Positions 5,680 to 57,231 of a stretch of DNA of 57,733 nt are shown piece by piece. The notes beneath the pieces are model-generated. The model did no database searches. It worked only from the letters and a program-made list of their open reading frames with translations, and was not told where the DNA came from. This DNA comes from Candidatus Nanohalobium sp. (GTDB lineage: Archaea > Nanohalarchaeota > Nanosalinia > Nanosalinales > Nanosalinaceae), in assembly GCA_042217545.1 (NCBI GenBank), contig JBDGSM010000017.1, positions 4,755 to 62,487 of the forward strand, given 5' to 3'. Each line of letters opens with the position of its first letter. The stretch's first letter is position 1. The position numbers and the translations under genes are program-made.

Positions 5680-5685
5680 CTTTTT

Positions 5686-6474: not shown

Positions 6475-6505
6475 AGTTACAGAAGAATTTTCCGGCAGGA
6501 AGGTT

Positions 6506-7345: not shown

Positions 7346-7348
7346 CTT

Positions 7349-8131: not shown

Positions 8132-8133
8132 AA

Positions 8134-9117
8134 TTACTCCTCGGCTAATCCTTCGTTGTAGATTTTCTTGACTACTGCTTCGATATCCGGTTCCTTGACA
8201 TGGAAATCGCTGATCTCGTAGTTGTTCAGGACTTCCTGCATGAGATCGCTTGCTGAAATTATCTCTCTGTCGAAGACTACTTCTACACCCTGTTCTGTAT
8301 CTATAATATCTTTTATGCCTTCAGTCTCCAGTTCTATAACTTCATCTGTCTCTAAAACAAGTCTTCTGGATGAGAAGCGGTCAACTAGATCATCTAACTG
8401 GCCGTCATAAATTTTCTTGCCTTCATCGAGAACGACGATTCTATCACATAAATCCTCTATATCGTCGATGTCGTGTGTGGTCAGCATGACCGTGATATTC
8501 TTTTCCTCGTTCATTTTCCGGATGAAGTCTCTGATCCTTTCCTTTACTGCTACGTCAAGGCCTATGGTCGGCTCATCTAAGTATACAATTTTTGGGTGAT
8601 GCAGGAACGCCGCTGCAAGTTCACACCGCATTTTCTGGCCCAGGCTCAGTTTTCTGACAGGTTGATCCCAGAAATCACTCAACTGAAGGACTTCATCAAA
8701 CTCCTCGATCCTTTGATCATAGTCTTCATCACTTACCTCATAAATTTCTTTGAGAAGTTTAAACGATTCTTTGACAGGTAAGTCCCACCATAACTGGGTT
8801 TTCTGGCCGAATACAACCCCTATGTTCATGGCGTTCTTCTTCCTGTGCCTGTGAGGGTCGAGGCCATTGACCTCTATTCTTCCCGAGGAAGGTTCTAGGA
8901 TCCCTGTCAGCATCTTTACTGTAGTGGATTTTCCTGCTCCGTTCGCACCGATATAGCCGATCATCTCGCCTTCATCTATCTCAAGGTTCAGGCCTTCCAC
9001 CGCGCGGATCTCCTCGTACTCACGGCTTATGAAGGATTTGAGGTATCCTCTGAGGCCTTCTCCCTGGTTGTAGATCCTGAAGGTCTTGTTCAGGTTTTCA
9101 GCTTCTATAAGACTCAT
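8134..9117 (-). CDS. ABC transporter ATP-binding protein (COG4586-like)
   Basis: Walker A GANGAGKST, ABC signature LSLGQKMR, Walker B IVYLDEPT and H-loop TTHD. It is the first gene of a five-gene minus-strand operon. Confidence 0.9.
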   Translation of the reverse strand: MSLIEAENLNKTFRIYNQGEGLRGYLKSFISREYEEIRAVEGLNLEIDEGEMIGYIGANGAGKSTTVKMLTGILEPSSGRIEVNGLDPHRHRKKNAMNIGVVFGQKTQLWWDLPVKESFKLLKEIYEVSDEDYDQRIEEFDEVLQLSDFWDQPVRKLSLGQKMRCELAAAFLHHPKIVYLDEPTIGLDVAVKERIRDFIRKMNEEKNITVMLTTHDIDDIEDLCDRIVVLDEGKKIYDGQLDDLVDRFSSRRLVLETDEVIELETEGIKDIIDTEQGVEVVFDREIISASDLMQEVLNNYEISDFHVKEPDIEAVVKKIYNEGLAEE

Positions 9118-45800: not shown

Positions 45801-48800
45801 ACAACCAGAACTGCGGAGGAAACCAGTGCAGCGACACCAAAGTCGTCGACCTGGATGTCTTCAGGAAGACAGATGTCAACTTCCTGACCTCGCCTGGCGA
45901 AAAATACCGGGGCAGCAACTACCTCCAGGCCAGAGTGGTCAACGGAGAAGGGAACAACGTAAACGGCTACACTGTAGGCTTCTACGACAACGGAAGCCTG
46001 ATACAGAACGTCTCAATGTCCGGAGGCCTGGCAGACTTCAACTGGAACACCGAGCAGAAACAGCTCGGCTTCCACAACCTTACAGCCAGGATATGGGACG
46101 ACGAATCCAACCACTTCAGAACTATCGACAGCACGGAGAGTGTCGGAGTCACATTGAACGACAGCCTCCAGATCTCCCGGGACATCAACGACAGGGACAT
46201 GTACTGGTACGACAACCAGACCGACCACAACGTAACCCTTAACTATACTGTAAGGAACAGAAACGGCTACTCGGTCGAAAACGCAACAGTCTCCCTCATA
46301 TCCAATTCATCCGACAAGTTCAAACATGTAGGAAGCTGCAGGACAGATCCAAACGGTAAATGCAACATCACATGGAACACAAACGTCTCGACACCAGTCA
46401 ACGCCACAATAAGATCAAAGGCCTACAAGAACAGGTACTACGATAACTCAACAACCAACGACAGTATTGTAGAGATCAAAGGAGGATTCTCAGTGGAGAT
46501 AGGCGTCCCAGACACAGGCCTCAACTGGAAGAACGACACTGACCTTATAGTAGGCAGAAACCAGTATCTCAAAGCCCTGATCACTGATGAAAACGGTACA
46601 TCGGTAACGCCTAACAATATCAACTGGACTATCAACACCTCCTCAGGCTACAAGCAGATTGGAAACAGCAAGAACCTGACCTGGACAGTCTCAGGAGTTT
46701 CAACAGGGCCTCATGAGTTGAACGTAAGTACAGAGACCCAGCAAGGTGTGAAAACAAGCGATACGGTCAACGTGGGCGTCTACGAACCAGTCGATATCTC
46801 AGTGAACAGCGTATCCCCGGGCAACACAGAAAGAAAGAACTCGACAGTCCAGATAAACGCGAACGTAACAAATACGAGGACAGGAAATCCTCTGGACGGA
46901 TACAGATGCAAGCTTTCGGACCAGAGCGAAGGAGAGTTCATAAACTCCACACAGTCCCTGTCCTCAGGCCTCTGCACCATGACCTGGAACACAGAATACA
47001 CGGACTTCGTGGGCACACACAACCTCAGGATAGATATACCTGAAAACAGGACGGGAACATGGTACCTGCCAGTCAAGAACTCGGCCGAGACAAGATCAGT
47101 TACACTTACAGAGAAACTGAACCTCTCAGTCCAGAAGCCCAGGGGCATAATCCACAGATACACATCACAGGATCTCCAGGCAGAGGCCAGGAACGCATAC
47201 AACAAGACCTCAGCCACGATAGAATGGAGACACGGAGGCAGCAACGTACAGCCAAACGGAACAGGCAAACAGGGCGACTGGAACACGTCAGGCCTAAGCC
47301 TGGGAGCTTACCGGCTGAACACAACCGCCTCAAAGCCCCAGTACACCTCGGACCTCGTGAGAAACAACCTCACAGTCTACGGGTACAGCAAGGTTAATTT
47401 CAACGAGTCAGGCCTCTACACCTCCGGAGATCGGATCAACCTATCCTTCAGAGCGGAAGATGTCAACACCACAACAGGAATAGCAGATTACCCGGTCCAG
47501 GTGTACCGGAAGTACGAGAACGGAAGCTACAAGGCCTGGAGAAACGGTACCACCGGAAGCTCTGGCTGGTACAACACGACCTGGAACACAACAAACGACA
47601 GCATAGGAGACTACAAGCTGAAAGCAGACATCAGCGACAACTCGACTCTTTACTACAACAACACTAACAGCAACGTGACCAGAAGCTTCTTTGTCGGAGG
47701 CACTCTCAACCTCAACATAACCGGCCTCAGCAAGGAAACAGTCTACCGGGACCAGCTCACGGAGCCTTCGGAAACGGTGATAGAGGCGAACGTCACTAAT
47801 GGAGGTATCCCGGTCAGTAATGCCGCCAAGGTAGAGTTCGACTTCTCCGGGAAAAAAATCGGTGAATGCCTCACAAACTCGACAGCAACCACCGGATTAT
47901 GTAACATCACATGGAACCCGGGCAGCGACAGGAAAGTCGGAGTCCAGAACATAACCGCACAGGCCTCCGCAGATAACTACTTCAACTCCAGTAAAGCCAG
48001 GAGGCAGATCGAGATCAGGACAGGAATCAGGCCTTACTTCAGAGACAAGAAGGAGACAGCAAGCTTCAACTTCTCCAGCAAACAGGGCCTCAACATCACC
48101 CCACAGGTTATCGAAACATTCACCGGCGACGGAGTCGGAAACTACAACTTCAACCTGGGATACGGGGACAGGAAAGACGATATCGAAGTGGAGACCTCAA
48201 AGAAGGCCTGGAGCAACGACTCGGCAACCCTGGCCGATATGAACAGCAGCCTGGCGATCAGCGGAACATCAACAGTCAACGTCTCAGCAGAGGACAGGGA
48301 GATAATAACTCTAAACGTCTCGAAAGCAACAGAGAACTTCAGCCTGGGCTTCAGGAGAAACAGTTCCTGGAAACAGGCCTTCAAAGGAAGCTTCAACGGA
48401 ACCAGAAACCTGGAGATACCTGACGGCAAGATAAAAGCCCTGAACATCTCCACCTCAGGCAACATCACCCTGGAAAGCCTGAAGCTGGTTGACACGGACC
48501 TGGCGAACAGGAAGGAGCTGATGAGACGGCGCATACTGGGACAGTTCGGAAACTCCAGGATGAACTTCGAGAACTCCAAACCACACAACGATTACAGCAG
48601 ATGCATGAACTCGGGAAGCTGCGTTCTCAACGGCACATACGTCGGAACAGAACCCGGCTTCAACGACAGCGTGGAAGGTAGCAGGACTCCCGGAGTGTTC
48701 AGCGGAAAAGCCCTGCTCGCCAACATCACCAACATGTCCGCAAACGATTCAGTCAGCATCCGAAGGCCTTACCTGGAGTACTACCCCGGGGAGAAGAACT

Positions 48801-51800
48801 TCAGCTCGTCGGATCTGCTTAGCTTCTGGATCCAGAGCGATATTCCATTCAACATGACTGTTGAGGACGGACCTGACGGTTCAGGAGTATGCAGCTACAG
48901 GGAGAGCTACAACAGCACGGATCTCTGGGAACTCAAACAGTACAACCTCTCGGAGTACAGAGAGCAGTGTGGGGTCGGAGTAGCCCAGATCTCCTGGAAC
49001 TTCCACCACCGAGGGACTGGAAACGTCTCCACGCTGGTAGGCCTCGACCAGGTAAGCAAGCTCACACCCGCAAAGACCAACGTCAACGGGACCAGGAACC
49101 TGGAACTGCTGCCCGGAAAGACAGGTCAGTACGACTTCAAGCTGGGGATCAAACAGTCCGGATTCTACAACCTCTCACAGAGCACGGCTTTCAAGACGAT
49201 CAACATCAACACTGGAAGAGGAAGAAAGAGCGTCGCAGGCAAGAAAATCGGCGGAGAAACCCAGAGAAAGGAAATAGCGCCTACAGGACAGGTCAACACA
49301 ACAGACTTCTGGGTAGAACCCGACTACATCAACGCCACGGTAGCAGCAGAAACCTACGGAACGTTCGGAAAAGCAACGATCTACAACAACAAGACCAAAG
49401 ACCTGTTCCTCCAGCTCTACGAAGGAAACAGAGCAGACCTGCTCGACGTACAGGACAACGTCACCGTAAAGGCCAGCACCCCCAGAACACAGGAACTGCA
49501 CGATGTAGGCCTCGGCTTCAACAGTTCACAGCCCGGAACCTACAACGGAACAGTTACGTTCTTCGATCCAGCAACAAGGAACTACGACACAGTAAACGTA
49601 ACACTCAACGTCAGAAACATTATAATGAATATCGTGAACACCTCTGCGGAACACGGCAGGGACAACATCACTTCAGGAGACACGATAACGGCCTACGCCA
49701 ACGTCACATACAATAATACAAAACAGATCAGCGACGCAGGATGGAAGGCCTCAATACAGGGAGATAAATGCTCGAACGTTAACTCCAAATACATAAACAG
49801 CACAGGCCTCTGGAAGATCAGCTGCAGCGCCCCCGGCATCAAGAAGAATCCGGTAAACGTCAGCTACGAACTCACAGCGCTGAAGGACAACCTGGAGATA
49901 AAGGCGAGGAAAGGCCTGAAGTACAGAGATGTCACACCTCCTTTCGTGGTCTCGAAGACCGGGGACAACGTAAGACAGGGAGAAAACGCCACAGTCCGTC
50001 TTGAGGCAGTCGACAACGTTGGAATAGACAACGTCACCGGTACGGGAATCTATCTCGGGAACAGTACCAAGGTCGGAAACGTCTCTTTCAGCAAGGTCAA
50101 CGGCAGATACGTCGGAAACCTGACACATACAGGCAGTAAAGGAGACTACGATGTGAAGGCCAGACTTGAAGACGTGAACGGCCACACAAGAACGGTAAGA
50201 ATACCTGTATCCGTCTTCCCATTCGTCAACTTCACAGGATCCATGAAGGATATGAAAGCGGACTTCAGATTCCAGAGGCCTTCCTCGAACACCACCCTGA
50301 TAGATGCATCCACGGACGAGAGCTACAACCTGAAGGTCCAGAACAGGAGCTATGACGTCAACATAGATGTACAGCCTGACAGGCCTGAAAAAGTAGGTGA
50401 ACCAGTACACAACATAGAGTTCATAAACACGTCGGTTAAAGGGAACATGACAGATCCTGTGTCTGTGTCGCCTGTGGAGAACGGAAACCCGGTCAACTTC
50501 CAACACCCATCAGGAACGACGAACAACACCTTCACAGGAGTATCCATTAACAGCAGCTTCAACTTCAGCAAGGCAACCATCACCTTGAACTACTCGAACA
50601 ACGAGGACTTTGACGAAGCAGACGAGAACAACCTCCGTGTCTTCAAATGTGAGTACGGAGCCGCAGGAAAATGTAATACCTCGGACTGGAGGCAGCTGAA
50701 CACCACCATCAACATAACAGAGAACACTGTGAAAAGCTCCACCAACAGCACATCATCCTACATCGTTGAGAGGCTTTACACACCTAACAACAACCAGGGC
50801 GGAAACCAGGGACAGCAGAACAAAAACAAGAAGAAAAACAAGAACGGCGGCTTCCCAGGAGGCCTTACAGGAAACGGAAAGAACAGCAACCAGTCCAAAC
50901 AAGATAACAAGTCCGATATCGCCAAAGAACCGTTCATCCTGTCGCCACATATCTTCCAGCCTATCATGTTCCGTGGAGACGAGAGAACATTCCTCCTGAA
51001 GATCGAAAACAACAGGGAAAAGACGATCAACCTGAACATGAGTATTGAAGGCGAGCTCAGGAAACTGCTGGGGCCTAAACACAGCTCCATGAACATCTCA
51101 GCGAACTCCACCGCCGTAACAGAGCTGAGAGCCTCTATCCCTGAGGACGCAAAGATCAAGACATACACCGGGCAGATAATCGCCCAGTACGGAAACGTGA
51201 CAGTTAACAGCTCCCAGTCGATCCTGGTATCAAGGAAAGGTTCCGAAGGCTTCCATCTGAACGTTAAGGCCTTGACCAAGAACGTGGAGCCAGGTTCGAA
51301 CTTCAGCTTCCAGACAAAGATAAACAAGATCACCCTAGAGACTCCGCTCCAGGTAAATATGACGCATTACTTCAGGGAGAGTGATACGGACAAAGTTATA
51401 CTGAAACTGAACAATTCATTCAAAGTAAGCGACAGTAAAACCATTAAGAGAAAGATATCGACCAAAGATATTCCTTCAGGAAGTTACTATGTCCAGACCG
51501 TTGCAAAGGCCGGTAACACGACAGTTGTTGACTCAGCGACTGTTGTTATCAAGGAAAGCTTCTGGACGCCGTTGAAGACCCGGGCCTTGATACTGATAAT
51601 CGCAGTCATCCTGATCAGTGTCCTTGGATGGAAAGGTTACCAGTACTACTGGACGAAGAAGGAGGAAGAAGCACGTTACGTCTTCCCAGTAGATTACAAC
51701 AGACTACCAGATGAAATAGAGGACAATTACTGGGTCGGAAAGATCGCAGAGACAGAGAAAGATGCGTACATCGATCCAAGCGACCTCACAACCCACGCGA

Positions 51801-52750
51801 TCGTATCAGGATCGACAGGATCCGGTAAATCCGTCACCGCAAACGTGATCGCGGAAGAAGCACTTGAAAACGACGTACCGGTAATCGTGTTCGATCCTAC
51901 AGCGCAGTGGACAGGATTCGTAAAGGAACTCAAAGACGATGACCTCGAGGAACACTACGACAGATTTGAAATGGATCCTCAGGAGGATTCAAAGCCTTAC
52001 AGGGGAGTCATCAAGGAGGTAAGCTCGGCAGAACCGGATATCAACTTCGAGGACCTGCAGAACGAGGGAGAGATCACAGTATTCACACTCAACCAATTGA
52101 CAACTGAGCAGTTCGATGAAGCAGTCAGGAATATAATCGACCAGATATTCGACAAGGATTGGGAGGAGAGCCCAGACCTGGAGATGCTTGTAGTCTTTGA
52201 CGAAGTGCACAGACTGCTGGAGGAATACGGTGGAGAAGGAGGTTACGAAGCACTGGAGAGAGGAGCCAGAGAATTCAGAAAATGGGGAATAGGCCTCATG
52301 ATGTGCAGCCAAGTCACAGCAGACTTCAAACAAGCCATCAGCGGAAACATAATGACAGAAATACAAATGCAAACCAAATCCATGGAAGACATAAACAGTG
52401 TAGAGAAAAAATACGGCGAGGAGTTCGCCAAGAGAATCTCCTCGGAAGACGTGGGTACGGGAATGATACAGAACTCGAATTACAATGATGGAGAACCATG
52501 GTTCGTCGACTTCAGGCCTACCTACCACAACCCACACAAAATCCCAGACAGCGAAATGAAAAAATACCACAACCTCTCCGAGAAACTTGACAGTATCAGG
52601 AAAGAGCTGGACAGACGGGAGGAAGAAGGAAAGGACCTGAGAGACAAGGGGCTGGAACTCCAGCTGGCCGAAAACAAACTCAAGGAAGGCAGATTCAAAA
52701 TGGCAAACATGTACATAGACAGCCTCAAAGACGAGATGGATCTAGGATGA
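27833..52750 (+). CDS. Giant (8,305 aa) multi-domain surface adhesin-like protein ending in a TM helix and a cytoplasmic HerA/FtsK-type ATPase domain
   Basis: A single stop-free frame of 24,918 nt. The N-terminal signal peptide is KRAVAILLVILLIGTVAG/HS. Domain grammar is consistent along the whole length; see the domain features and findings. Confidence 0.85.
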   Translation: MGLKSSGKRAVAILLVILLIGTVAGHSLKILDTSNSFRTSQGKSNWTVSFNSSQTGKLKIEILQGSSKIDFDKLQYKLSGKWNDRSYNVSGNTLTTNWDGNHPEGRIAFSVQKYGRYRANISIGGREVSVGNPSKAEQQNFGFDVSDPTNSFNLCALTNNFWKCNPGPEEPGASGKVVNLNPEVQKKFKVPRNSKINHFSIKLSTVEGRPVLNLTGQGTLFTDIASNNLKEILTYQGQNINAYNSSGNKIWTYNANNTINNIKSGNEIIQGNKKEVLAATKNSTLMIDHQGNLTWADRGNEYYHIAAGELSSERKTYRNDDGKAEGLACIGCTNETVIQLPYNITTGNGTYYIKTALNKYKNSGDLKLKANGTTYDIDESRIEEKAVREFKNDSGKIEDMAEIGPGNITFQAFKPNLKAKDFYLKLPLARASSTTSDLKLEISGSKYSIPSGEVSSVVDPNFTYSTQSSAEALRNIGNGEAVYKTGFDPGSNTSIYVGGRFNSIGSNADIKVKLNGTSYTIDGSDISVNNIKEFKADDGKADGSSRLKASTNSTFNLHYSMPSDINSEKVYVKAGFTYSGDKSGNPFVKAGGSKYYFPKSQITETSDVTRYVNDNQRDNYSCIGCNSSNQRAPVFDLSALNVSTLKAENARISARMCSVGNRVDDLKLSGVGLGSNVYNVNVSKIHACSKGFQDVKIPVQPGDLAEDNFIFRCSNCNKTSYYRLASDNSTGGKYSQYLVGGAPTGISSDYMINVTTDTSLNYSWAEAAVPDTAVNQGDNVTIGCDGCSGSSSYRLMTDGSNSGNSYYFNNSLKKISSDYMTRIWTNTSLNYDTAYTRVNSSDIGPNTNISFSSTGNYNILVDKNNSGNSYYAGNPLNGEYKTRIEERPVNYSYTKIKINESELNADNATLSCQNCGSSYYIGLEPSSGLKISGTADFIGKKDFGADARVWTNTSLEYDTIRTPVNWKDLGKDVNVSYFCQGCSGKAFNVLIDNNSNSSSWKYSNGYRGLNGGLMSSVEFYGSNPGDEIVGSRLFPSAIVAMDSSGNQLWNYSTSEMTYSVNIGPVVPNSIGNEVVIATKKKIRILDSSGNVLKTYPSGSSKWFRATTLEDLNSDSKDEIVTGTDSGHVIALDQNLSVIWNQGVGSKVNGLTSGNLSKSPGPEILAGLQDSSLVLFNSSGQQIQSYSRPEAVTNLESGNVLTRPGQEIGVSTSQSRLFNFYNLPEDLYLSSGGNQLWNGSGLFTGTKTVSNSSIVQGMNNQLSGCGTKSCNLSFTLGSSTGGKVLLSDPELDFTYNLSDTYDYTTNVTKWAKTSGFSSDKKLMYKASRIKYTQTPAIPIRVNRIFLPGGVGTTKVVFNNNSFQNNAYSLDLPRSLRYWRFNFLGTRPTDYIWYNSSKKASPISVTKGNLTGSSPASRNVTVARATEKTDVTFRNVTVNIPVNTSEVVKDAFLKADWNGDGNYVNITPSETGCSSFRNVTGDTRTWKVCKTVNGNGKVDEFRIVQPEIGNSSSTHNETVYKLAGITNIAPTLNRLDVSPSSTYWGQDFNFTSDFSDAEGNSLNASLWLKKDSNWTKKASSQFTGSHNFTLTSDRNWTGAVDYKVSYYDVKNGSRLHDAVNSSTESFVVEAHDTNVSYRYGAGLELDRTGETGKLGGVVYDEDDGGKLNSYTSDLYCFLYMNGTAQSVTKINGTGYCSFSLADLKRDLGLYNWHIQTYSSKGYFKKSNSATKNLTLLGNFTVDTNFSKRTAFRGNGTVKYSYENIQDALGNSVSPTYNVTWGSANNLTVEGTQQLSGSSVSGTFTGITDTTPLGLTPMKLNPRQENFNNESFVKQVRVLGLITPNLYPSKNTVFPKNDLVNLTARLRDRQSNQITQASVDFNTPPGFCTATYQNRNVYKCQYNPDNSLAAGTYNWSIDATRQNYRLNDTKSQINVGTGIRADSNVTTGTVYRYSKASGSNTVYYNVTDIRDDTGQLDNVSWKALWEGSIIQSGKTNSTGFNFSYTVPENQNPGSKTAKLKLEKTGYRKYTDTSTVDVDGSINASLETRPNENLTATLRDMKDNPISGSSVTFHTPPGQCLKKYSIGNKYYCEYNADQGLSKGQYRWNISVNDPDYSYQQNKSANISIQSQISANLTLQSGPYYRANSSTSNPTNPSLQIANSNPSSVNYTISLGGKTVASGQVSGGSKYLTFNVPDTASLGTQTVTINLKKNGYEDLTKTFGREIRGTLTADLYQAEDVFRNNSVTRNNYNLTTNLKANITNALGQQVGGLSTSFNIPGGECITSYSNSYNYSCTYDPNILASVGNQTWSVTASAAGYEPVTSNQGSFYLKNVIRPDFLSSGEGYRRDRTKSLKVQALNPSDNSVDASYTSSYYIGPDYLGGNSGTGTVSFSWSPSCTRSVGGYTIDANITSNDPRYEVYQGQDSGNISVRADLNLNISSPLNSSVSGKNYQQGSNVNLATDLATQCGDPVNMSGTDIIWKASDRDTTKIISSGKTASWNIPESFTGETNITAYGDNYYYVGGSDTNKILIERVLNINTTGGFTDKLRTFGGSYDYPFSAEIITGDGKKAYNSSLNENWNKFNISFYVDGNKVKELRTDSQGSVNTTINLGSQYNPGTHTLKAYLENTTAINTTILNDKYTKDIKLTDQASVDMSRPKSGQKSYGQEVNLISSINTATGNENALNIDYNWIFKDNDTQRYISSSKVSSWIIPSYAYGPGNISVVAQNDYLTTATNTTDVTVNRKTNIEKYDPYKYVEPDTVNKLNATIDIPGLQNKSGYKVTFWTGSYSNQHTVKTGPNGTATYKWNTSGLSKGAYNTGVFIKDAPPSYFKAVDPKSVNRTLVIPDKLNISAYYRDNNEENANGNNFPNLPDKVVYRNPGPWKNPDKIFLAANVTTPFANSGDKYDVENATVDFWINGTSDNGQQITEKIGQDNVNLTAFQQGLNDNKDQWWDEYTAHTSWNPRGNLPVGAYNLKINATHPVPGFNPDPIRRPLEIRGVLNITITDPPAWEDTYQMDNLTFSAQVEDMNGNDIPVSSLDQAIWTLQEDGCANSGDAGASGWSAGTFDWSSAIAHGPKTGSLSSWIVMGNTGYYNIGGGELVWLNAEKQYFNVTRNEYRRGFTDCSAVHHQEDGPKGQINSQFEGDREDRVGIQHDMRARTESVVSEPSQTEVATNNRDMLNITARYYEFNTTQGLPNDFEGTYHATCKECTQSKNKNLSQSAYSYRDQDVAQFRFNFSNEKYRKNYTFTIWATSSDSDFGAVDPYATDSREYRVYKSLGSGTGSVNINGKCENGETAVSAPPDCGFDNLPEHYWLNQTADPGINASDKNPASNDTQYNEFRNTSSPAYENNKAWYAAHSHYSSEYAGGCDFDGKEDDKYEEPDVCPDYFSSDNKPQIKSTQVNPPYVKSGNQANVTAKVRDIDGDLQSVDLIDKSTNSKVTSMSTTSGSCTTYCTFTTTITVSSVKTYYVKAQDSANNTATGNNVDARTDDNPVNITNVTVLGQDPRKKNANLDVDMNVSNVDIPGGATPDSIKEANIEGKTPYVLKHGSNWAVLEQTITADPNDETVNVNVTEYPGYQDSATATYNVDNTIPNVTNEQVTPSLVKNGDKVNFTATITDNALDREYIKRTDNGNKVCTNSSFTNTGGDTYKCSINAPYKTGSFTYRFYAMDKADNTNDSETVTLSVDSHPPEITGLSSDKYIRPNQTVTISANVNDVEGHLDSAMLVTMNQFYNDSMNVVCDDQEFQGSCQVSPNKSTDYMIYANDTLGNENLNFSQDYVEVKVDEFKPNVELQNQETNFSGTVNIKARVNDTPPEVANGGFEQGNTGQWKFTQSSTNITNGTGYCTDDNGDGTSYCAFFDGSVYPKTTAQNNITGQKADRIAGKSVEFSGSLWGERNNFGLETDSSKASYKEYGGEDDARFHIKAWDGSNNLIKDKKGVWASHYTSNRTSGEMTNVSNGFKVPSSAKTISVQLDGGDLQGSAANAYDSFFDSIKLGPSNLDTSSVKYAFSNSSGNYTSSGAGFGSLPHDTGNNFSTSVDTTGLEDGYYMLTVKASDAVNNQAIYRKEVKVDNEPPEIDFRENISRKAKITVSDGSNQKKITLRPGIEKYPVSFSGTSGSATLDILMNSSTPLETGLINSLVLKASDGSVIRNISTESQWDQGSYSGLSTDGRTSSALGLGSQNGSSGDSLVGYWRFNRKVSGKGGTIPDSSGNSNKATLLNGSDITGDGIYSTNSVDLNGINQSVRADKSADLNSSSLTFSTWFKMDRNLTCSSNNNWRSFAHKGSSTSGSNRGWDIVLEEGGATAFDVNGTRWWPDSFHDEKVGYPLDEWHHYTYTYKASTGRMAFYKDGKLIDYYYKEPGPIRPAASQLKIGGGTDTGCPSGSGYVPGSYDEVQVYDQALAKSQIQDLYSKTSNAYKGTYTDSFSTSKAVKSIEVNTDNLWNSRVQNTETFNISIFDELLNDDPSTYKYRINGGSYQSIQNLGNSSFSATKDTTGLSNGWNSIEAKASDTEGNTGTKRFRFFVDNQNPSISAISANTSITNGDTVGLSADISDSSLNASSVNFTLINATDQAFEKDPSESCDYTSSKLSCSSAWTPSGLKDGSYNFKVHASDLMGHKASNQDPGESFYLDTKKPNITSSGINDSFVQSSQNLLVWALANDDHNVSTVKAEGYSLSEQPAGNWSSVIPVTDGVVNLTVKDVAGNKKSYGNLNYTIDDKRPQISGLTSNASADFAQGDQVVRFELNASDSHMRSVGLKNRSSGKYVGMVNGSKQTWYLKIRPKQLGLVEQEYNLTARAIDKADNLRKDYYNITIDNSPPRIKKVVLNDTVIRSNTEIAVNATVNDRAPDWVNANGVNLSQNGNLWKGTINVNLSTENPVNVTAEDLAGNFNSNASVGYTIDNTAPTISAFVSNASSGVTRSDAELRFNVSTSDANMRNVTVQGEGLTQGSPWFLKATPGSLGCATGVADQNCTLTAKSTDKADNTQSRDLNITVDDVRPDVGNFTSNVSIIRPGSAVYFTADIDDANVRNVTVRNSTDTVCEMTRVSGTNYSCSTQLYNSSDYFVDALDLAGNVNDTQSVNIETDTTPPRFLSFGSNATYNASRSGANLNFTAVAEDLRLEKVSIGGIKASNLSSTYSLVRTPGELGCPTTGESVCGISFYAEDVPGNSKNRTYNLTVDNIDPDINLVKIDDQIIQSNSTVKATVNVSSETDTDLEYVKAEGQGLTWNGSLWTGNIKVDNDGYVNASTKDKAGNTDLNESVQYIIDDQAPNAYSFNSNTSQDVSRSDKVLNFNLNANDNYQLRDVKIWNKTSGKKLDMTNTGGTRYAVNTTPASLGCPEGVNRKSCDLTVTATDRADNKANTSYTLTTDDIAPDIQDINFNDTDTVVKPNKTLKTNLTLVDDKQSTISELKVENQSISQKSKNSTGGLKSIWEGSITIDNDGFLNITARDQAGNTNTDNSTEYIVDDTSPTIQNLNTNSSNGVIRSDQTLNITVNASDRYNLSSVTVNGLNMHKTGKWIWNRADTAGDLGCTTDGNCELQAKAFDQAGWNSSTRKYLKIDNTNPNVGTLTALNASDGSPDAALGKWNLDWRLFNTTDATNLTVKLYAINGTTGKSTGGNTTVLKQFNQTSYRTVKRPVYFNATNGTYTLVANVTDEAGNRVNTTYRLAITAQPPEIPDAWASNKRPEEDREKATIKANITDTNEIDTTKMTILNTGKTFTNLTLLQPATGNRTGGIYGVDYTPPDNGYYNISVTGIDGTDERRTEEFDRVFKAIGKTSGNLSMNAQRTVFDNITQNYTGRTPVDVNFTNTGLAGSYQTSIQPALVQAGVTTNSTGKNCGRVDNGSSCQATILINVSPQASPGTKRVAEFADWVNPDGTNASISDTLGLTVKKNPVLKLRKDKISKDVWWNQKVNVTNLSAYSFGNYKLKNVTATVSQSYLNNSATNNLLGSYYRFFGEGNNVSKDETGNSSFQVQIPDKGRYIFELKSKASNNQNCGGNQCSDTKVVDLDVFRKTDVNFLTSPGEKYRGSNYLQARVVNGEGNNVNGYTVGFYDNGSLIQNVSMSGGLADFNWNTEQKQLGFHNLTARIWDDESNHFRTIDSTESVGVTLNDSLQISRDINDRDMYWYDNQTDHNVTLNYTVRNRNGYSVENATVSLISNSSDKFKHVGSCRTDPNGKCNITWNTNVSTPVNATIRSKAYKNRYYDNSTTNDSIVEIKGGFSVEIGVPDTGLNWKNDTDLIVGRNQYLKALITDENGTSVTPNNINWTINTSSGYKQIGNSKNLTWTVSGVSTGPHELNVSTETQQGVKTSDTVNVGVYEPVDISVNSVSPGNTERKNSTVQINANVTNTRTGNPLDGYRCKLSDQSEGEFINSTQSLSSGLCTMTWNTEYTDFVGTHNLRIDIPENRTGTWYLPVKNSAETRSVTLTEKLNLSVQKPRGIIHRYTSQDLQAEARNAYNKTSATIEWRHGGSNVQPNGTGKQGDWNTSGLSLGAYRLNTTASKPQYTSDLVRNNLTVYGYSKVNFNESGLYTSGDRINLSFRAEDVNTTTGIADYPVQVYRKYENGSYKAWRNGTTGSSGWYNTTWNTTNDSIGDYKLKADISDNSTLYYNNTNSNVTRSFFVGGTLNLNITGLSKETVYRDQLTEPSETVIEANVTNGGIPVSNAAKVEFDFSGKKIGECLTNSTATTGLCNITWNPGSDRKVGVQNITAQASADNYFNSSKARRQIEIRTGIRPYFRDKKETASFNFSSKQGLNITPQVIETFTGDGVGNYNFNLGYGDRKDDIEVETSKKAWSNDSATLADMNSSLAISGTSTVNVSAEDREIITLNVSKATENFSLGFRRNSSWKQAFKGSFNGTRNLEIPDGKIKALNISTSGNITLESLKLVDTDLANRKELMRRRILGQFGNSRMNFENSKPHNDYSRCMNSGSCVLNGTYVGTEPGFNDSVEGSRTPGVFSGKALLANITNMSANDSVSIRRPYLEYYPGEKNFSSSDLLSFWIQSDIPFNMTVEDGPDGSGVCSYRESYNSTDLWELKQYNLSEYREQCGVGVAQISWNFHHRGTGNVSTLVGLDQVSKLTPAKTNVNGTRNLELLPGKTGQYDFKLGIKQSGFYNLSQSTAFKTININTGRGRKSVAGKKIGGETQRKEIAPTGQVNTTDFWVEPDYINATVAAETYGTFGKATIYNNKTKDLFLQLYEGNRADLLDVQDNVTVKASTPRTQELHDVGLGFNSSQPGTYNGTVTFFDPATRNYDTVNVTLNVRNIIMNIVNTSAEHGRDNITSGDTITAYANVTYNNTKQISDAGWKASIQGDKCSNVNSKYINSTGLWKISCSAPGIKKNPVNVSYELTALKDNLEIKARKGLKYRDVTPPFVVSKTGDNVRQGENATVRLEAVDNVGIDNVTGTGIYLGNSTKVGNVSFSKVNGRYVGNLTHTGSKGDYDVKARLEDVNGHTRTVRIPVSVFPFVNFTGSMKDMKADFRFQRPSSNTTLIDASTDESYNLKVQNRSYDVNIDVQPDRPEKVGEPVHNIEFINTSVKGNMTDPVSVSPVENGNPVNFQHPSGTTNNTFTGVSINSSFNFSKATITLNYSNNEDFDEADENNLRVFKCEYGAAGKCNTSDWRQLNTTINITENTVKSSTNSTSSYIVERLYTPNNNQGGNQGQQNKNKKKNKNGGFPGGLTGNGKNSNQSKQDNKSDIAKEPFILSPHIFQPIMFRGDERTFLLKIENNREKTINLNMSIEGELRKLLGPKHSSMNISANSTAVTELRASIPEDAKIKTYTGQIIAQYGNVTVNSSQSILVSRKGSEGFHLNVKALTKNVEPGSNFSFQTKINKITLETPLQVNMTHYFRESDTDKVILKLNNSFKVSDSKTIKRKISTKDIPSGSYYVQTVAKAGNTTVVDSATVVIKESFWTPLKTRALILIIAVILISVLGWKGYQYYWTKKEEEARYVFPVDYNRLPDEIEDNYWVGKIAETEKDAYIDPSDLTTHAIVSGSTGSGKSVTANVIAEEALENDVPVIVFDPTAQWTGFVKELKDDDLEEHYDRFEMDPQEDSKPYRGVIKEVSSAEPDINFEDLQNEGEITVFTLNQLTTEQFDEAVRNIIDQIFDKDWEESPDLEMLVVFDEVHRLLEEYGGEGGYEALERGAREFRKWGIGLMMCSQVTADFKQAISGNIMTEIQMQTKSMEDINSVEKKYGEEFAKRISSEDVGTGMIQNSNYNDGEPWFVDFRPTYHNPHKIPDSEMKKYHNLSEKLDSIRKELDRREEEGKDLRDKGLELQLAENKLKEGRFKMANMYIDSLKDEMDLG
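30890..31500 (+). other. Beta-propeller-like repeat region (FG-GAP/PQQ-like blades) inside the giant protein
   Basis: Repeated blade-like units: GDEIVGS..VAMDSSGNQLWNY, GNEVVIAT..ILDSSGNVLKTY, KDEIVTGTDSGHVIALDQNLSVIWN and GPEILAG..LVLFNSSGQQIQ. Confidence 0.55.
39262..39825 (+). other. CBM4_9-like carbohydrate-binding (jelly-roll) domain inside the giant protein
   Basis: It starts with the hallmark ANGGFEQGNTGQW, ends with ...FFDSIKLGP, and is about 185 aa long. Confidence 0.5.
40386..41060 (+). other. LamG / concanavalin-A-like lectin domain inside the giant protein
   Basis: LVGYWRFN...IPDSSGNSNKATLLNG...LTFSTWFK...WHHYTYTY...MAFYKDGKL...YDEVQVYDQAL is the Laminin_G_3 pattern. Confidence 0.6.
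41716..44503 (+). repeat. Tandem array of about 85-105-aa Ig-like domains in an alternating A/B di-domain super-repeat (about 5 copies)
   Basis: Domain boundaries carry [VIT]D[ND]xxPx[IV] motifs at nt 41716, 41971, 42265, 42524, 42806, 43075, 43358, 43618, 43927, 44219 and 44503. Confidence 0.7.
51584..51640 (+). other. Single C-terminal transmembrane helix of the giant protein
   Basis: ALILIIAVILISVLGW is followed by the positively charged KGYQYYWTKKEEEAR, consistent with positive-inside topology and a cytoplasmic downstream domain. Confidence 0.7.
51670..52747 (+). other. HerA/FtsK-superfamily (DUF87-like) P-loop ATPase domain of the giant protein
   Basis: Walker A GSTGSGKS (nt 51809-51832), Walker B LVVFDEVH (around 52188-52211) and the REFRKWGIGLMMCSQ segment typical of HerA-like ATPases. 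Confidence 0.7.
52232..52722 (+). repeat. 491-bp perfect direct repeat, copy 1 (3' end of the giant gene)
   Basis: Identical base for base to 54106-54596 (offset 1,874 nt). A further 17 identical nt follow a single C/T mismatch at 52723/54597. Confidence 0.9.
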
Positions 52751-54624
52751 AGAAAAAAATAGCACTTATAGGTCTCGCACTGTTGCTTACAGGAACAGCA
52801 GCAGGTATGTCCGTTCACAGCGAGATACCAGCCCTGAGCACGATCTTCAAGCAGAAACAGGAGATATACACCGTGAGGATAACAAACACCAAGAACTTCT
52901 CGCAGACCTACAGCTTAAGGCCTGAGAAAGACCTGGAGAAGCTAGTAAACGTGAGAAGAAAGATCTCTATCGGCGCAGGCGAGTCAAAGGAAGTCAAGAT
53001 TGAAATCAACGGGAAAGGCCTTAGCGACGGACTCTACGCAGGCAATATACTTGTGAAGAGCAATACAGGCGAGGAGAAAGGAATACCTGTCGGTTTCAGA
53101 GTTGTAAGGAAGAAGAACTCCGATCTCCGGCTTGACGTGCAGACAACATCTGGCTCTATGAGGCCTAAAGGAAGCATCAATGTCCTGACCGTACTCTCAT
53201 CGAACGAGGGGAAGAACGTGAGCGGTACAATCACTTACGGCATAAGAGACGCCACTTCCGGAGTCAGGATCTACAAGACGACCCGGAACGTCTCCATAAC
53301 CAGGTTCGGATCCTTCACGCATGAGATAGACCCTTTAACAGAGGTCTCTCTGGGCGAGTACTACATACAGGCCAGGCTGGACACGGGGAACAGGACAGTA
53401 ACTGCGACCGATACCTTCCGGTCAACTAACCCGTTCTGGTCAGCTACAAGGATAAAGATCGCACTCTTCCTCGCAGTCGGAGCGATCATCATAGGCGGAG
53501 GATTCTACACACAGAGATGGTACCAGCAGCACAAGGACGAGGACGCACGGTACGTCTTCCCGGTTGACTACGAGAAGCTACCGGACGAGGGAGAAGACCA
53601 GTACTGGGTCGGAAAAGTGGCAGAGACGGAGAAAGACGCATTCATCAATCCGAAAGACCTGACAACACACGCCATAGTCGCAGGAAGCACAGGATCAGGC
53701 AAATCCGTCACCGCAAACGTCGTAACAGAGGAAGCACTTGAAAACGACGTGCCAGTAGTAGTATTCGATCCTACAGCACAGTGGACAGGATTCGTAAAAG
53801 AACTCAAGGACGACAACGTCGAGGAACACTACGACAGATTCGATCTCAACCCTGAAGACGACACAAAACCCTACCCGGGCATAATCAAAGAAGTGACCAC
53901 AGGAGATCCGGATATCGATTTCCAGCAGCTCAAACAGCCCGGAGAAATAACCGTCTTCACCCTCAATGAACTTACAACAGAACAGTTCGACGACGCAGTT
54001 AGAAGCATCATCGACCAGATATTCGAGATCGAATGGGAGGAAAGCTCAACACTGGAAATGCTGGTCATATTCGACGAAGTCCACCGCCTACTCGAAAAAT
54101 ACGGGGGAGAAGGAGGTTACGAAGCACTGGAGAGAGGAGCCAGAGAATTCAGAAAATGGGGAATAGGCCTCATGATGTGCAGCCAAGTCACAGCAGACTT
54201 CAAACAAGCCATCAGCGGAAACATAATGACAGAAATACAAATGCAAACCAAATCCATGGAAGACATAAACAGTGTAGAGAAAAAATACGGCGAGGAGTTC
54301 GCCAAGAGAATCTCCTCGGAAGACGTGGGTACGGGAATGATACAGAACTCGAATTACAATGATGGAGAACCATGGTTCGTCGACTTCAGGCCTACCTACC
54401 ACAACCCACACAAAATCCCAGACAGCGAAATGAAAAAATACCACAACCTCTCCGAGAAACTTGACAGTATCAGGAAAGAGCTGGACAGACGGGAGGAAGA
54501 AGGAAAGGACCTGAGAGACAAGGGGCTGGAACTCCAGCTGGCCGAAAACAAACTCAAGGAAGGCAGATTCAAAATGGCAAACATGTACATAGACAGTCTC
54601 AAAGACGAGATGGACATGTCTTAA
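52747..54624 (+). CDS. Membrane-anchored HerA/FtsK-type ATPase with two Ig/CARDB-like ectodomains; paralogue of the giant protein's C-terminal module
   Basis: Signal peptide MKKKIALIGLALLLTGTAAG, TM helix IALFLAVGAIIIGGGFY (around 53452-53505), Walker A GSTGSGKS (53683-53706) and Walker B LVIFDEVH. ATGA overlap with the giant ORF stop. Confidence 0.85.
   Translation: MKKKIALIGLALLLTGTAAGMSVHSEIPALSTIFKQKQEIYTVRITNTKNFSQTYSLRPEKDLEKLVNVRRKISIGAGESKEVKIEINGKGLSDGLYAGNILVKSNTGEEKGIPVGFRVVRKKNSDLRLDVQTTSGSMRPKGSINVLTVLSSNEGKNVSGTITYGIRDATSGVRIYKTTRNVSITRFGSFTHEIDPLTEVSLGEYYIQARLDTGNRTVTATDTFRSTNPFWSATRIKIALFLAVGAIIIGGGFYTQRWYQQHKDEDARYVFPVDYEKLPDEGEDQYWVGKVAETEKDAFINPKDLTTHAIVAGSTGSGKSVTANVVTEEALENDVPVVVFDPTAQWTGFVKELKDDNVEEHYDRFDLNPEDDTKPYPGIIKEVTTGDPDIDFQQLKQPGEITVFTLNELTTEQFDDAVRSIIDQIFEIEWEESSTLEMLVIFDEVHRLLEKYGGEGGYEALERGAREFRKWGIGLMMCSQVTADFKQAISGNIMTEIQMQTKSMEDINSVEKKYGEEFAKRISSEDVGTGMIQNSNYNDGEPWFVDFRPTYHNPHKIPDSEMKKYHNLSEKLDSIRKELDRREEEGKDLRDKGLELQLAENKLKEGRFKMANMYIDSLKDEMDMS
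54106..54596 (+). repeat. 491-bp perfect direct repeat, copy 2 (3' end of the 625-aa ATPase gene)
   Basis: Identical to 52232-52722. The upstream parts of the two ATPase domains are only about 80% identical by eye. Confidence 0.9.
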
Positions 54625-54659: not shown

Positions 54660-56930
54660 ATGGGAGTCCTGGACAAGATCAAAGGCAGCAGCACCGACAA
54701 GGACCAAGTAAAGGAAGAAGTGAATGAACAGGTCAAAGAACTCAAGGAACAGGCCTCCAACCAGAAAAAAGAAGAAAACTCACAGGAAGAAATACAGGAG
54801 AAGGACGAGACAACCGAAGAACGTCCAGAACCTGAAGAAATAGAGGAAAAAGAAGAGCAGGAAAGAGAGGAGGAAGAAGCGGAAGAGACCTCACAGGAAG
54901 AAGATTCTGAACAGGTTGAAGAAGAAAGCAGTTCCGAAGATTCTGAGGCCTCAGAAAAAGATGATGAAGCAGACGATGAGCCGGAGACTGTCGGAGCTAT
55001 CGCAAGAGAGGACCAGGACATAGACTACGATCCCGAGGAGCATCAGGACCAGGAAGAGGAAGAAGACGAGATAGAGCTCCAGGACCTTATGCAGAAGACC
55101 GAGAAGCTGGAAGGCCGGTTCGAATCATTCGAGAGCTTCCAGGATCAGGTAAACCAGCGTCTCAGCAATCTTTCCGAGAAGATCGGCGAAGTCCGCTCCA
55201 TGGTCCTGGAACAGGAGAAAGAAGTTGACGACATCAAACAGGGCTACAAGAAGATAGAAGACATCTACGAGGACATGGAGCCCGAAAAGATCAATAAACG
55301 ATTTGAAAAGATCAAGGGCAACGTCGACAAGATCCAAGGCCAATCAGAACAGAACAAAGAACTTCTGGACAACTTACAGAACACCGTAGATGACATAGAA
55401 GACGCACTTGACCAGGTAGACGACTTCGACAACCTGGCGGAGATGCATGAATCACTGCAGAAGAAAGTGGACAAGGTAGAGCAACTCAAACGTGAAGTAA
55501 ACGAGAAAGAATCCAAAGTCGAGTCAATGTTCGGCGAACTGGAGGAAAGACTGCCAGAACTCGACTCAGTAAAACAGAAGACCGAACAGCACGAAGAAAT
55601 GCTACAGAACCAGGTAAAAGACATAGACCAGGTCAAACTCGATTTAGACGACAAACTGGACGAAGAAAGCATCACAGACAAGCTCGAAGAAGTCCTGGAC
55701 GACGAAGAAAAGGATATAGAAGGCCTTGTAACCAGGAAAGACCTCGAAGAGGAAATGCAGGAAGAAAGAGAAAGCCTAAAAGACCTGGAAACAGACGTGC
55801 AAGGCCTGAAGGAGGATATAAAATCCCGACAGGAAGACATAGATGCCGTAGGCGAAAACGAGGAGAAGATACAGGACCTCAAAGACAGGATTCGGGGCCT
55901 GGAGGACACGGCCGAGGAGGAGGACGAAAAAATACAGGAGGAAACCGAAAAGCTCCGCGGAAGACTTGAAGAACTGGAAGGTCATGTAAAGGACAGGGAG
56001 AACATCAAATCAATAGTAAAGACCTACCAGGAGGCAAAGAACAGCAAACTCCAGAGCAGATTTGAAGACATCGAGGAAAGACTTGAGGAAGCGGAGAGCA
56101 ATGATGAAGAGGAAGAACTCCAGGAAGAAGTTCAGGACCTGGAAGAAGAAGTTGAAGGCCTTAAGGACAACCTCAAGACACTTAGAGAGAGCTCCGGCGA
56201 CAAAGAAAAGATCGAAGAGCTTGAAGAACAGTTCAGAGGCCTCGAAGAAGAGCTGGACGAGGAAATGGATGATCTCAAGCAGAACCTGGATAGCGGCGAG
56301 GAGCTCTCGGAACTCGAGGAAAGAATCGGAGAACTCGAGAAACGTGAGAGAGGTCTCGAAGAGAAGATAGACGAAAGAGTTGATGAAAAAGTCTCCGGCG
56401 TACGTGAGAAAGCTGAAAAAGCGGAGAAGAACGGCGACAAGATCGAGATCCTGCGCAAGGACTTCAAAGAAGCAAAGGAGAAGAGAAGCAGCGATGTCGA
56501 AGACCTTGAGGAAGAGGTATCAAACGTACAGGAACGTCTGAACTCCAAGGAAGACCAGGAAGATTTCAACAAGCTTGAGAACCGTGTCGAAGAAGTTGAA
56601 GGCCTGAAAGACGACATTGATAAGATCGAGGAGAACCGTGAACGCCTAGAAAGCCTTAAGAAAGGTGTTAAAGAGCTTCAGGAAGACGAGAACTCGGGCC
56701 AGGAGGACCTGAGGGAGAAGGCCTCAGACCTGGATAAGAAGGTTAGAGAACTTGAGGAGAAAGTCGACGGCGGAAGCAGTCTCGAGGAACGTGTTGAAGA
56801 AATCGAGAAGGAGCTTAAGAACGGCAGGGACCTTGAACAGGAGGTTCAGGAGCTCTCTGAACTTGTGCTAAAACTGGCAAGACAGCAGCAAGGATTCGGC
56901 GATGAAGGAGTACAAGAACGTAGAATGTAG
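54660..56930 (+). CDS. Hyper-acidic coiled-coil protein (756 aa)
   Basis: A roughly 150-aa E/D/S-rich disordered N-terminus is followed by about 600 aa of heptad-like E/K/L/D repeats. It starts 35 nt after the ATPase gene on the same strand. Confidence 0.75.
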   Translation: MGVLDKIKGSSTDKDQVKEEVNEQVKELKEQASNQKKEENSQEEIQEKDETTEERPEPEEIEEKEEQEREEEEAEETSQEEDSEQVEEESSSEDSEASEKDDEADDEPETVGAIAREDQDIDYDPEEHQDQEEEEDEIELQDLMQKTEKLEGRFESFESFQDQVNQRLSNLSEKIGEVRSMVLEQEKEVDDIKQGYKKIEDIYEDMEPEKINKRFEKIKGNVDKIQGQSEQNKELLDNLQNTVDDIEDALDQVDDFDNLAEMHESLQKKVDKVEQLKREVNEKESKVESMFGELEERLPELDSVKQKTEQHEEMLQNQVKDIDQVKLDLDDKLDEESITDKLEEVLDDEEKDIEGLVTRKDLEEEMQEERESLKDLETDVQGLKEDIKSRQEDIDAVGENEEKIQDLKDRIRGLEDTAEEEDEKIQEETEKLRGRLEELEGHVKDRENIKSIVKTYQEAKNSKLQSRFEDIEERLEEAESNDEEEELQEEVQDLEEEVEGLKDNLKTLRESSGDKEKIEELEEQFRGLEEELDEEMDDLKQNLDSGEELSELEERIGELEKRERGLEEKIDERVDEKVSGVREKAEKAEKNGDKIEILRKDFKEAKEKRSSDVEDLEEEVSNVQERLNSKEDQEDFNKLENRVEEVEGLKDDIDKIEENRERLESLKKGVKELQEDENSGQEDLREKASDLDKKVRELEEKVDGGSSLEERVEEIEKELKNGRDLEQEVQELSELVLKLARQQQGFGDEGVQERRM

Positions 56931-57231
56931 ACGCTGCGGCTACCAGTGGTATTCTGAACAGTTTGAAGAGGAAGGTGATGTTCCCAGTCAGTGTCCACGG
57001 TGTTATCAGGAGGCGGTACGTGAGATACCGGAGCCACCTACCAGATTTGATATCTGGAGGGAGGAAACAGCGAAGAAGTGGAACGAGCTGCCCGGAAAGA
57101 TCAAGAAGACAAAGCATAGGGCCGTGGTCTGGAAGGAAAACAACAAACTCCTGATCTCGCTGATCAATACAGGCCTTATCATCACTTTACTGGTTGCCGG
57201 CTTAATTTACCTGCTTTTCGTCCGGGGGTAG
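56902..57231 (+). CDS. Zn-ribbon protein with C-terminal transmembrane anchor
   Basis: CRRCG...CPRC four-Cys ribbon and a C-terminal helix LLISLINTGLIITLLVAGLIYLLF. It overlaps the upstream gene by 29 nt. The start is uncertain. Confidence 0.5.
   Translation: MKEYKNVECRRCGYQWYSEQFEEEGDVPSQCPRCYQEAVREIPEPPTRFDIWREETAKKWNELPGKIKKTKHRAVVWKENNKLLISLINTGLIITLLVAGLIYLLFVRG

Follow-up and report, generated by a model that had tools for sequence, protein, structure and literature searches.

DPANN archaea rely on their hosts for nucleotides, lipids and amino acids. In the locus described here, a giant surface protein of such a symbiont carries an ATPase at its C-terminal end, and the gene that follows encodes the same ATPase-bearing unit a second time. 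The locus lies in a 57,733-nt stretch of DNA (the window) from an uncultured nanohaloarchaeon, a DPANN archaeon of a species distinct from those of the Candidatus (Ca.) Nanopetramus SG9, Nanohalovita and Nanohalococcus loci. It starts with a giant gene (Table 1) whose product has a Sec-type signal peptide (N-terminus MGLKSSGKRAVAILLVILLIGTVAGHS), a ~7,700-aa ectodomain rich in S, N, T and G with diverged internal repeats at offsets of ~180-200 aa, and a C-terminal module of ~600 aa. The adjoining gene encodes the module alone and is followed by genes for an acidic coiled-coil protein and for a small protein with a zinc ribbon and a transmembrane (TM) helix. The giant and the stand-alone module genes are joined by an ATGA overlap (52747-52750), as a model's first reading of the letters (the sequence-only reading) had reported, and this tight coupling is kept in three complete genomes. 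In SG9 (locus L002), Nanohalovita (L003) and Nanohalococcus (L004), the gene order is a giant of 8,553, 8,880 and 9,409 aa, respectively, an overlapping or abutting gene for 623-628 aa, an acidic protein of 512-741 aa and a protein of 108-115 aa. We consider it very likely that the window locus is a SPEARE locus organized as a four-gene operon of giant, short paralogue, acidic coiled-coil gene and Zn-ribbon/TM gene. For this identity and the mode of operation proposed below taken together, we put the probability, as a blended figure, at about 0.55.

Giant proteins of this type were named SPEARE by Hamm et al. 2019 (PMC6642349), who described proteins lying mostly outside the cytoplasm, with a TM segment close to the C-terminal end and, in the cytoplasm, a conserved P-loop domain of the 'type III restriction' type, and noted similar domains in other DPANN lineages. 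Their examples include the protein of 8,553 aa in SG9, whose four SPEARE genes make up 4% of the genome, and one of 5,998 aa in Ca. Nanohaloarchaeum antarcticus, whose giant was seen in proteomic data. Reva et al. 2023 (PMC10266531, section 11) re-annotated the domain as a 'VirB4/TraG-like ATPase', noted a terminal coiled coil and reported a second ATPase gene of the same family directly downstream (SVXNc_0300/0299 in Nanohalococcus and BNXNv_0298/0297 in Nanohalovita). They disputed the protease and laminin-G domains and also rejected the restriction endonuclease reading. The sequence-only reading had taken the covalent link between a motor and a giant adhesin for an uncharacterized architecture. 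This claim fails because the two studies published these loci: the link is already the defining SPEARE trait, and the downstream ATPase gene is published as well. The window adds one more species to a published type of locus, and its architecture is in itself no discovery. A search for domain families in residues 1-7,690 of the giant, made with Pfam alone, found none at E <= 0.001. Of the serine-protease, laminin-G and beta-propeller domains reported for orthologues, the first two of which belong to the published SPEARE description, none was confirmed by Pfam in the window giant.

We then asked whether the shared C-terminal part is a unit in its own right. The last 610 aa of the giant and the 625-aa protein are 60% identical over 603 aa (BLASTP, 712 bits, E = 0), in agreement with the homology and common architecture seen in the sequence-only reading, all of whose quoted peptides occur in the window proteins. 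From N- to C-terminus, the module has a pair of beta-sandwich domains, a single TM helix, the P-loop ATPase and a hairpin of helices. In an AlphaFold2 model of the 625-aa protein, made from a 40-sequence alignment (mean predicted local distance difference test score, pLDDT, 86), a signal-peptide helix at residues 2-14 is followed by beta-sandwiches at 21-120 and 127-226, a TM helix at 233-266, a RecA-like core at 286-547 and the hairpin at 559-621, with only ~20 residues and two short strands between the TM helix and the ATPase core. The TM helix of the giant, which has 372 residues C-terminal to it, coincides in the alignment with the helix modelled for the small paralogue. Between the two proteins, the ectodomain pairs share only ~18% identity. 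They had been described as 'two Ig/CARDB-like domains', of which the two beta-sandwiches, of a generic Ig/FnIII-like kind, hold, but CARDB receives no specific support, having no match in the Pfam tables. Matches of the pair in relatives are weak and generically Ig-like (FixG_C, HYDIN/VesB-like Ig), and Foldseek gives RbmA and WxLIP. A profile of the pair was built from 38 family members with the giant's own row excluded. It recognized the membrane-proximal pair of the giant with E = 5e-43 (133 bits), and none of the giant's other Ig-like repeats scored above 6 bits. Because the profile matches only the membrane-proximal pair, the module is a real unit that starts at ~50948. With a Sec-type signal peptide at the N-terminus and one TM helix, both proteins should have their ATPase in the cytoplasm, the topology proposed in the sequence-only reading and also concluded by Hamm et al. 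and Reva et al. As a side observation, alignment columns show an N-terminal Cys motif, 'CG...C........C..DC', in many non-halophilic DPANN relatives of the small protein, and nanohaloarchaeal proteins are without it.

The sequence-only reading assigned the ATPase to the HerA/FtsK superfamily and reported Walker A (GSTGSGKS) and Walker B (FDEVH) motifs. Both, and the REFRKWG and SQ motifs as well, were located in each protein and are intact, with Walker B reading (L/V)(V/I)FDEVH, and Walker A, Walker B, REFRKWG and SQ are invariant across 40 aligned relatives, in which the C-terminal helical hairpin is also highly conserved. R469 is a candidate arginine finger. The hallmarks of the FtsK-HerA superfamily, namely Walker A, Walker B with a catalytic Glu, an Arg-rich motif and a RecA-like fold, are all present, and Pfam, a PDB-sequence profile search and Foldseek bear the assignment out. 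Within this superfamily, four independent tests of sequence and model support a placement of the ATPase domain nearest to HerA/DUF87. In Pfam, DUF87 scored 52.2 and 43.9 bits in the window proteins (cut-off 23.2) and HerA_C 30.9 and 30.8 bits (cut-off 22), and both were matched by 40/40 aligned family members. NCBIfam returned weak local matches only, led by CedD and HerA. The eight best matches of the PDB-sequence profile search were HerA or HerA-like, with the Sulfolobus solfataricus structure 4d2i first at 9e-10, followed at a distance by DotL (E = 0.008) and FtsK structures (E = 0.05), and no VirB4 structure appeared at E <= 1. Foldseek against PDB also placed HerA 4d2i at the top (8e-13), and among the 50 best rows the ATPase matches were all HerA assemblies.

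Membership in the neighbouring families was rejected one by one. For VirB4, AAA_10 reached 24.0-25.4 bits in the window proteins, below its cut-off of 27.5, and the VirB4 N-terminal domain PF03135 was absent by Pfam from the window proteins and, even at E <= 10, from SVXNc_0299 (P0014), BNXNv_0297 (P0010) and P0004. The N-termini of SVXNc_0299 and BNXNv_0297 consist of a signal peptide and two beta-sandwich domains. For VirD4/TraG coupling proteins, TrwB_AAD_bind gave 17-18 bits (cut-off 20.5), T4SS-DNA_transf gave 20.6 bits yet no single stretch passes, and the operon is without type IV secretion system (T4SS) genes. FtsK_SpoIIIE (PF01580) stayed at 17.5-20.1 bits against a cut-off of 24, and the module has a single TM helix only. 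CedD, the top NCBIfam match, scored 45.7 bits in the Walker A region only against a cut-off of 600, and CedB 15.7 bits against 700. Nor is the ATPase a HerA sensu stricto or orthologue, as it has no HAS barrel and no nuclease partner, its neighbours being the coiled-coil and Zn-ribbon proteins. When Hamm et al. 2019 introduced SPEARE, they proposed that its cytoplasmic domain acts as a type III restriction endonuclease and destroys host DNA after import. This idea can draw on ResIII matches of 3e-07 to 1e-05 over the P-loop region (3.2e-07, 30.8 bits in the giant), but ResIII and DEAD cover only the generic core from Walker A to Walker B and score below DUF87. That reading fails because no nuclease domain was detected in the module with Pfam and NCBIfam, in agreement with Reva et al. 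2023 (PMC10266531), and we regard it as effectively refuted.

The two ATPase-coding regions share a 491-nt block with 100% DNA identity, a feature absent from the sequence-only reading. The ATPase-coding DNA on its 5' side is ~63-88% identical, with third-codon-position identity of 35-70%. Identical tracts between the paralogues were also found in Ca. Nanohalococcus (152 nt), Ca. Nanohalovita (92 nt) and SG9 (80 nt), outside of which third-codon-position identity is mostly 30-60%. Ectodomains cluster by orthologue (47-70% identity between genomes for the giants and 38-60% for the small proteins, against 17-25% between paralogues), whereas the ATPase parts are often most alike within one genome, and in many DPANN tandem loci the in-locus paralogues are each other's best ATPase match. 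As the ectodomains group by orthologue and the ATPase parts are mosaic, these comparisons suggest an ancient duplication, after which gene conversion recurred in the ATPase-coding part only, and the 491-nt block is most likely a gene-conversion tract. Faulty assembly of a metagenomic contig is a very improbable source of the duplication or of its perfect 491-nt identity: the abrupt switch from ~75% to 100% DNA identity is what a collapsed or chimeric repeat should look like, but the tandem pair is found in three complete genomes and many metagenome-assembled genomes (MAGs), the 80-152-nt tracts lie in those complete genomes, and the flanks of the block differ and read in frame to different stop contexts. 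The tandem duplication itself is secure, and an artefact could concern the 491-nt block only.

How widely the module occurs was examined by a scan of one genome per GTDB species, which returned at least 559 relatives, by inspection of the 80 best loci and by an exhaustive HMMER search over 1.84 billion representatives. The best relative of the small protein is that of SG9 (74%), followed by Nanohalobium, Nanohalovita and Nanohalococcus and then by Aenigmatarchaeota and Woesearchaeota; the small protein is 72-75% identical to SG9 AQV86_02330 and close relatives. Between the window and SG9 giants, the ATPase parts are 88-91% and the ecto-plus-TM parts 70% identical. Among the 80 best loci, the ATPase usually sits C-terminally in ORFs (open reading frames) of 2,100-3,950 aa or more, and the tandem pair of a large fused and a small gene recurs in several DPANN lineages, with the genes mostly overlapping or nearly abutting. 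At E <= 1e-30, the HMMER search yielded 335 clusters. Among the 139 top representatives that it newly returned, 109 have at least 1,000 aa, 68 at least 2,000, 27 at least 4,000 and 3 at least 7,000; since most of them are long, fusion of the motor to a large ectodomain is the family norm. The N-terminal addition varies from nothing to more than 7,000 aa of extracellular repeats, the largest published orthologue being that of Nanohalococcus. By these sequence searches, the ~600-aa module is a specific unit across DPANN that is usually joined to ectodomains of 1,000-7,900 aa.

Two loci bear on which part of the system is its core. The nanohaloarchaeal locus L086 (JGI Ga0136447_1000001, 392022-405890) has genes for a 622-aa module, a 679-aa acidic protein and a 108-aa protein with no giant upstream, and in locus L009 a second ORF with the ATPase is missing from the ~9.7 kb upstream. 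Because both have module and partners in the absence of such an upstream gene, the short module and its partners look like the core, and the giant like an optional add-on. Giant proteins have been reported as absent from Ca. Nanohalobium constans, which fits the layout of L086. In a distant subfamily (P0203, P0204, P0209, P0211, P0214, P0216, P0238, P0249), an N-terminal signal anchor precedes a different ectodomain of ~600 aa, and the ATPase is followed by a K/E-rich tail of 350-700 aa with repeated 'F..HV....KNDFADWI' motifs. The idea that these tails are fusions to the coiled-coil partner was rejected, as reading by eye shows 'HVxxxKNDFADWI' repeats and not the partner's conserved core. Some members lie in MAGs labelled as non-DPANN, namely 'Methanosarcinales' (L029, L039, L044, L047, L077), 'Heimdallarchaeota' (L017) and Hydrothermarchaeota (L071, L075). 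These may be mis-binned DPANN contigs or reflect a truly wider distribution, and L075, carried by a Hydrothermarchaeum contig of 1.9 Mb, speaks for the reality of at least some cases.

The two genes downstream of the ATPase pair are conserved as well. The acidic partner has a core of ~220 aa with the motifs EKLEGRFE, SE(K/R)IGEVRSMVLE and SKxESMFGEL. An acidic ORF of 300-850 aa lies directly 3' of the ATPase gene in most related loci, and the acidic ORFs of related loci share this core (phmmer E ~1e-8 to 1e-200). Relatives numbered 2 when the search was made with a single sequence and 12 with a 3-sequence profile. The AlphaFold2 model of the partner is all-helical with three long helices and a low predicted template modelling score (pTM 0.28), and Foldseek found no fold match for it in PDB. 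The fourth gene, conserved in nanohaloarchaea, overlaps the partner gene by 29 nt. ORFs of 108-118 aa occupy the equivalent position in L002, L003, L004, L006, L007 and L009, and ORFs matching it in size and position are also present in L085 and L086.

We propose that the ATPase domains would form HerA-like hexameric rings lying tight against the membrane at its inner face. Only ~20 residues link TM helix and ATPase, and the helix replaces the N-terminal HAS barrel of HerA. The short paralogue would supply most of the ring subunits, and the giant would join or nucleate the rings and so tie a host-binding stalk of ~0.9 MDa to the motor. Together with the coiled-coil partner, the ring would spend ATP on moving a polymer across the symbiont membrane at the site of host contact; by analogy with CedB/CedD, FtsK, SpoIIIE and TraB, this polymer would most likely be host nucleic acid. 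The ring, co-assembly and substrate steps jointly are a tentative proposal. The boldest form is more doubtful: that the giant and the short paralogue are a hetero-hexameric, membrane-bound HerA-type motor, DPANN-wide and coupled to a coiled coil, in which one subunit bears the stalk and which builds or powers a conduit for uptake from the host. If true, it would be the long-sought translocation apparatus that takes host nucleic acids or proteins, distinct from T4SS, Ced and FtsK systems. Recurrent conversion and conserved coupling of the two genes are compatible with mixed rings of one giant and several small subunits, an idea of the sequence-only reading, without demonstrating them.

Several points weigh against this proposal. 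Similar tandem repeats of any kind are expected to undergo gene conversion, which is no proof of co-assembly, and the 491-nt identity could in principle stem from assembly collapse. Six single-pass helices are unlikely to make a pore wide enough for double-stranded DNA, and the operon encodes neither a multi-pass channel protein of the VirB6/CedA or FtsK-TM type nor a pilin. In addition, peptides from the ectodomain and from the TM/cytoplasmic part were recovered in different size fractions, the cytoplasmic ones only below 315 kDa (Hamm et al. 2019, PMC6642349). This may mean that the giant undergoes cleavage, in which case stalk and motor would no longer be coupled.

The ATPase might instead be a mechanochemical anchor or organizer and not a conduit, its coiled-coil-coupled rings serving to cluster, tension or remodel the adhesins and the membrane where the cells touch, or aiding assembly or turnover of the giant, with the giant and the small protein in separate homo-oligomers. 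The long acidic coiled-coil partner kept beside the ATPase in most related loci, the conserved hairpin, the missing channel protein and the poor ability of single-pass anchors to form pores would all suit such a role. To our knowledge, however, all characterized members of the HerA/FtsK clade thread a polymer through their central pore, and a cytoskeletal function is a guess for a partner with no recognizable fold relative; we regard this alternative as unlikely. Less likely still is the model of Reva et al. 2023, a T4SS-like 'straw' in which VirB4/TraG-type ATPases act with a giant that forms or guides a channel for injecting effectors into the host. VirB4 and VirD4 do belong to the FtsK-HerA superfamily, weak sub-threshold matches to AAA_10, TrwB_AAD_bind, T4SS-DNA_transf and TraC/TraD were obtained, and Ca. 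Nanohalococcus and Haloferax are reported to be joined by cytoplasmic bridges (PMC11001535). Yet SVXNc_0299 and BNXNv_0297, for which PF03135 was claimed, do not show it, AAA_10 at 24-25 bits falls short, the PDB profile and Foldseek comparisons lead to HerA rather than VirB4, and VirB6, VirB2 and VirD4-like neighbours are missing from the operon. The membrane-bound HerA-type motor, in the graded form given above, is the reading we retain.

Table 1. Coordinates of features in the window.
Feature	Position	Strand	Remarks
Giant SPEARE-type gene	27833..52750	+	8,305 aa, uninterrupted ORF
Giant: membrane-proximal beta-sandwich pair	50948..51568	+	residues 7706-7912; ends in juxtamembrane SFWT motif; from ecto-pair profile
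Giant: single TM helix	51584..51631	+	ALILIIAVILISVLGW; residues 7918-7933; read from sequence
Giant: predicted HerA-clade ATPase and C-terminal helical hairpin	51671..52747	+	Pfam DUF87 1.1e-13, HerA_C 1.5e-07
Giant: Walker A	51809..51832		
Giant: Walker B	52187..52210		
Giant: REFRKWG	52268..52288		
491-nt block, copy 1	52232..52722	+	in giant gene; 100% DNA identity to copy 2
Stand-alone module gene	52747..54624	+	625 aa
Small protein: beta-sandwich pair	52807..53424	+	
Small protein: TM helix	53458..53505	+	
Small protein: Walker A	53683..53706	+	
Small protein: Walker B	54061..54084	+	
Small protein: REFRKWG	54142..54162	+	
491-nt block, copy 2	54106..54596	+	in small gene
Small protein: helical hairpin	54421..54609	+	
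Acidic coiled-coil partner gene	54660..56930	+	756 aa, 36% D+E
Partner: conserved core	55047..55760		
Zn-ribbon/TM gene, fourth in operon	56902..57231	+	109 aa; N-terminal CxxC...CxxC zinc ribbon, C-terminal TM helix
Membrane protein gene divergent from giant gene	23817..27728	-	1,303 aa
Overlapping ORF 1	38..1918	+	626 aa; start listed as ATG at 38
Overlapping ORF 2	1915..2841	+	308 aa
ABC-2 family permease genes	4873..9117	-	four consecutive paralogues

Elsewhere the window has archaeal housekeeping genes, including those for PCNA, primase, GINS, eIF2-alpha and XPB, and searches for tRNA or Rfam families across the window found none. The gene divergent from the giant gene, across a 104-nt intergenic gap, encodes a membrane protein with an N-terminal anchor, a repeated ectodomain rich in Cys, Trp, Tyr and Asn, a C-terminal TM helix and an acidic cytoplasmic tail. 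Its sole Pfam match is C5-epimerase (E = 8e-4, below cut-off), and it may be another host-interaction surface protein. Neither of the two overlapping ORFs near the start of the window matches a Pfam family, and the 626-aa one, which is rich in S, N and G, may be a further surface protein. The four paralogous ABC-2 permease genes (PF06182) adjoin one ABC ATPase gene, a fourfold array that is unusual for a genome of ~1 Mb. On the + strand, positions 28001-56000 have a sustained AT skew of +0.26 to +0.51 and a mostly negative GC skew, because the S/N/T/D/E-rich proteins of the giant gene and operon are encoded by A-rich codons with C over G.

The SPEARE operon is the most conspicuous candidate for moving material between symbiont and host cells, and its genes occupy a measurable share of a ~1-Mb genome. 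The present analysis corrects the family assignment to the HerA clade, without a VirB4 N-terminal domain and without a nuclease, and defines the ~600-aa module as a conserved core to which the giant ectodomain is optional. The concerted evolution of the ATPase paralogues, the duplication at the level of the module and the DPANN-wide prevalence of large fusions are new here, and two conserved partner genes had been overlooked by the published models. These findings are incremental and leave the category of the locus unchanged, but they are useful to specialists and offer testable targets for the cultivated co-cultures of nanohaloarchaea with haloarchaea.

Compared with characterized systems, the module shares its RecA-like core, the best fold match, with HerA of S. 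solfataricus and of the Sir2-HerA and DUF4297-HerA defence complexes, along with Walker A, Walker B and (A)RE(G/F)RK(F/W)G(V/I)G...SQ motifs. Where HerA has a HAS barrel, the module has a TM helix and extracellular domains that anchor it in the membrane, and its operon is without NurA, Sir2 or another nuclease partner of HerA. The Ced system of Sulfolobales (PMC11868833), in which the two paralogous TM-anchored HerA-clade ATPases CedB and CedD cooperate at the membrane in DNA import, resembles the locus in this pairing, and CedD is the best NCBIfam match; unlike it, the module is without a VirB4-like N-terminal domain and its operon encodes neither CedA nor a pilin, and the Ced proteins are without a large ectodomain. 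With FtsK/SpoIIIE/TraB and VirD4/TrwB, members of one superfamily, the module has in common an N-terminal membrane anchor followed by a P-loop motor of a ring-forming kind, but those pumps have two to four TM helices and no extracellular adhesin, whereas the module has one TM helix and no gamma domain. The closest counterparts are the published SPEARE loci. Reva et al. 2023 assigned the ATPase to VirB4/TraG with a VirB4 N-terminal domain in the small protein, in contrast to the HerA/DUF87 assignment without PF03135 made here. Their account does not mention that the small protein copies the entire module, nor gene conversion, nor the conserved coiled-coil and Zn-ribbon partners. The Nanohalococcus occultus and Nanohalovita haloferacivicina loci treated there have a signal peptide, ~75 Ig-like domains by the authors' estimate, a TM helix, an ATPase and a coiled coil. 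In its length, extracytoplasmic bulk, C-terminal TM helix, cytoplasmic tail and ResIII-matching P-loop domain, the window giant conforms to the SPEARE description, and SG9 shares with it the tandem of a giant and a 625-aa protein, the TM helix near the C-terminus and the cytoplasmic P-loop domain.

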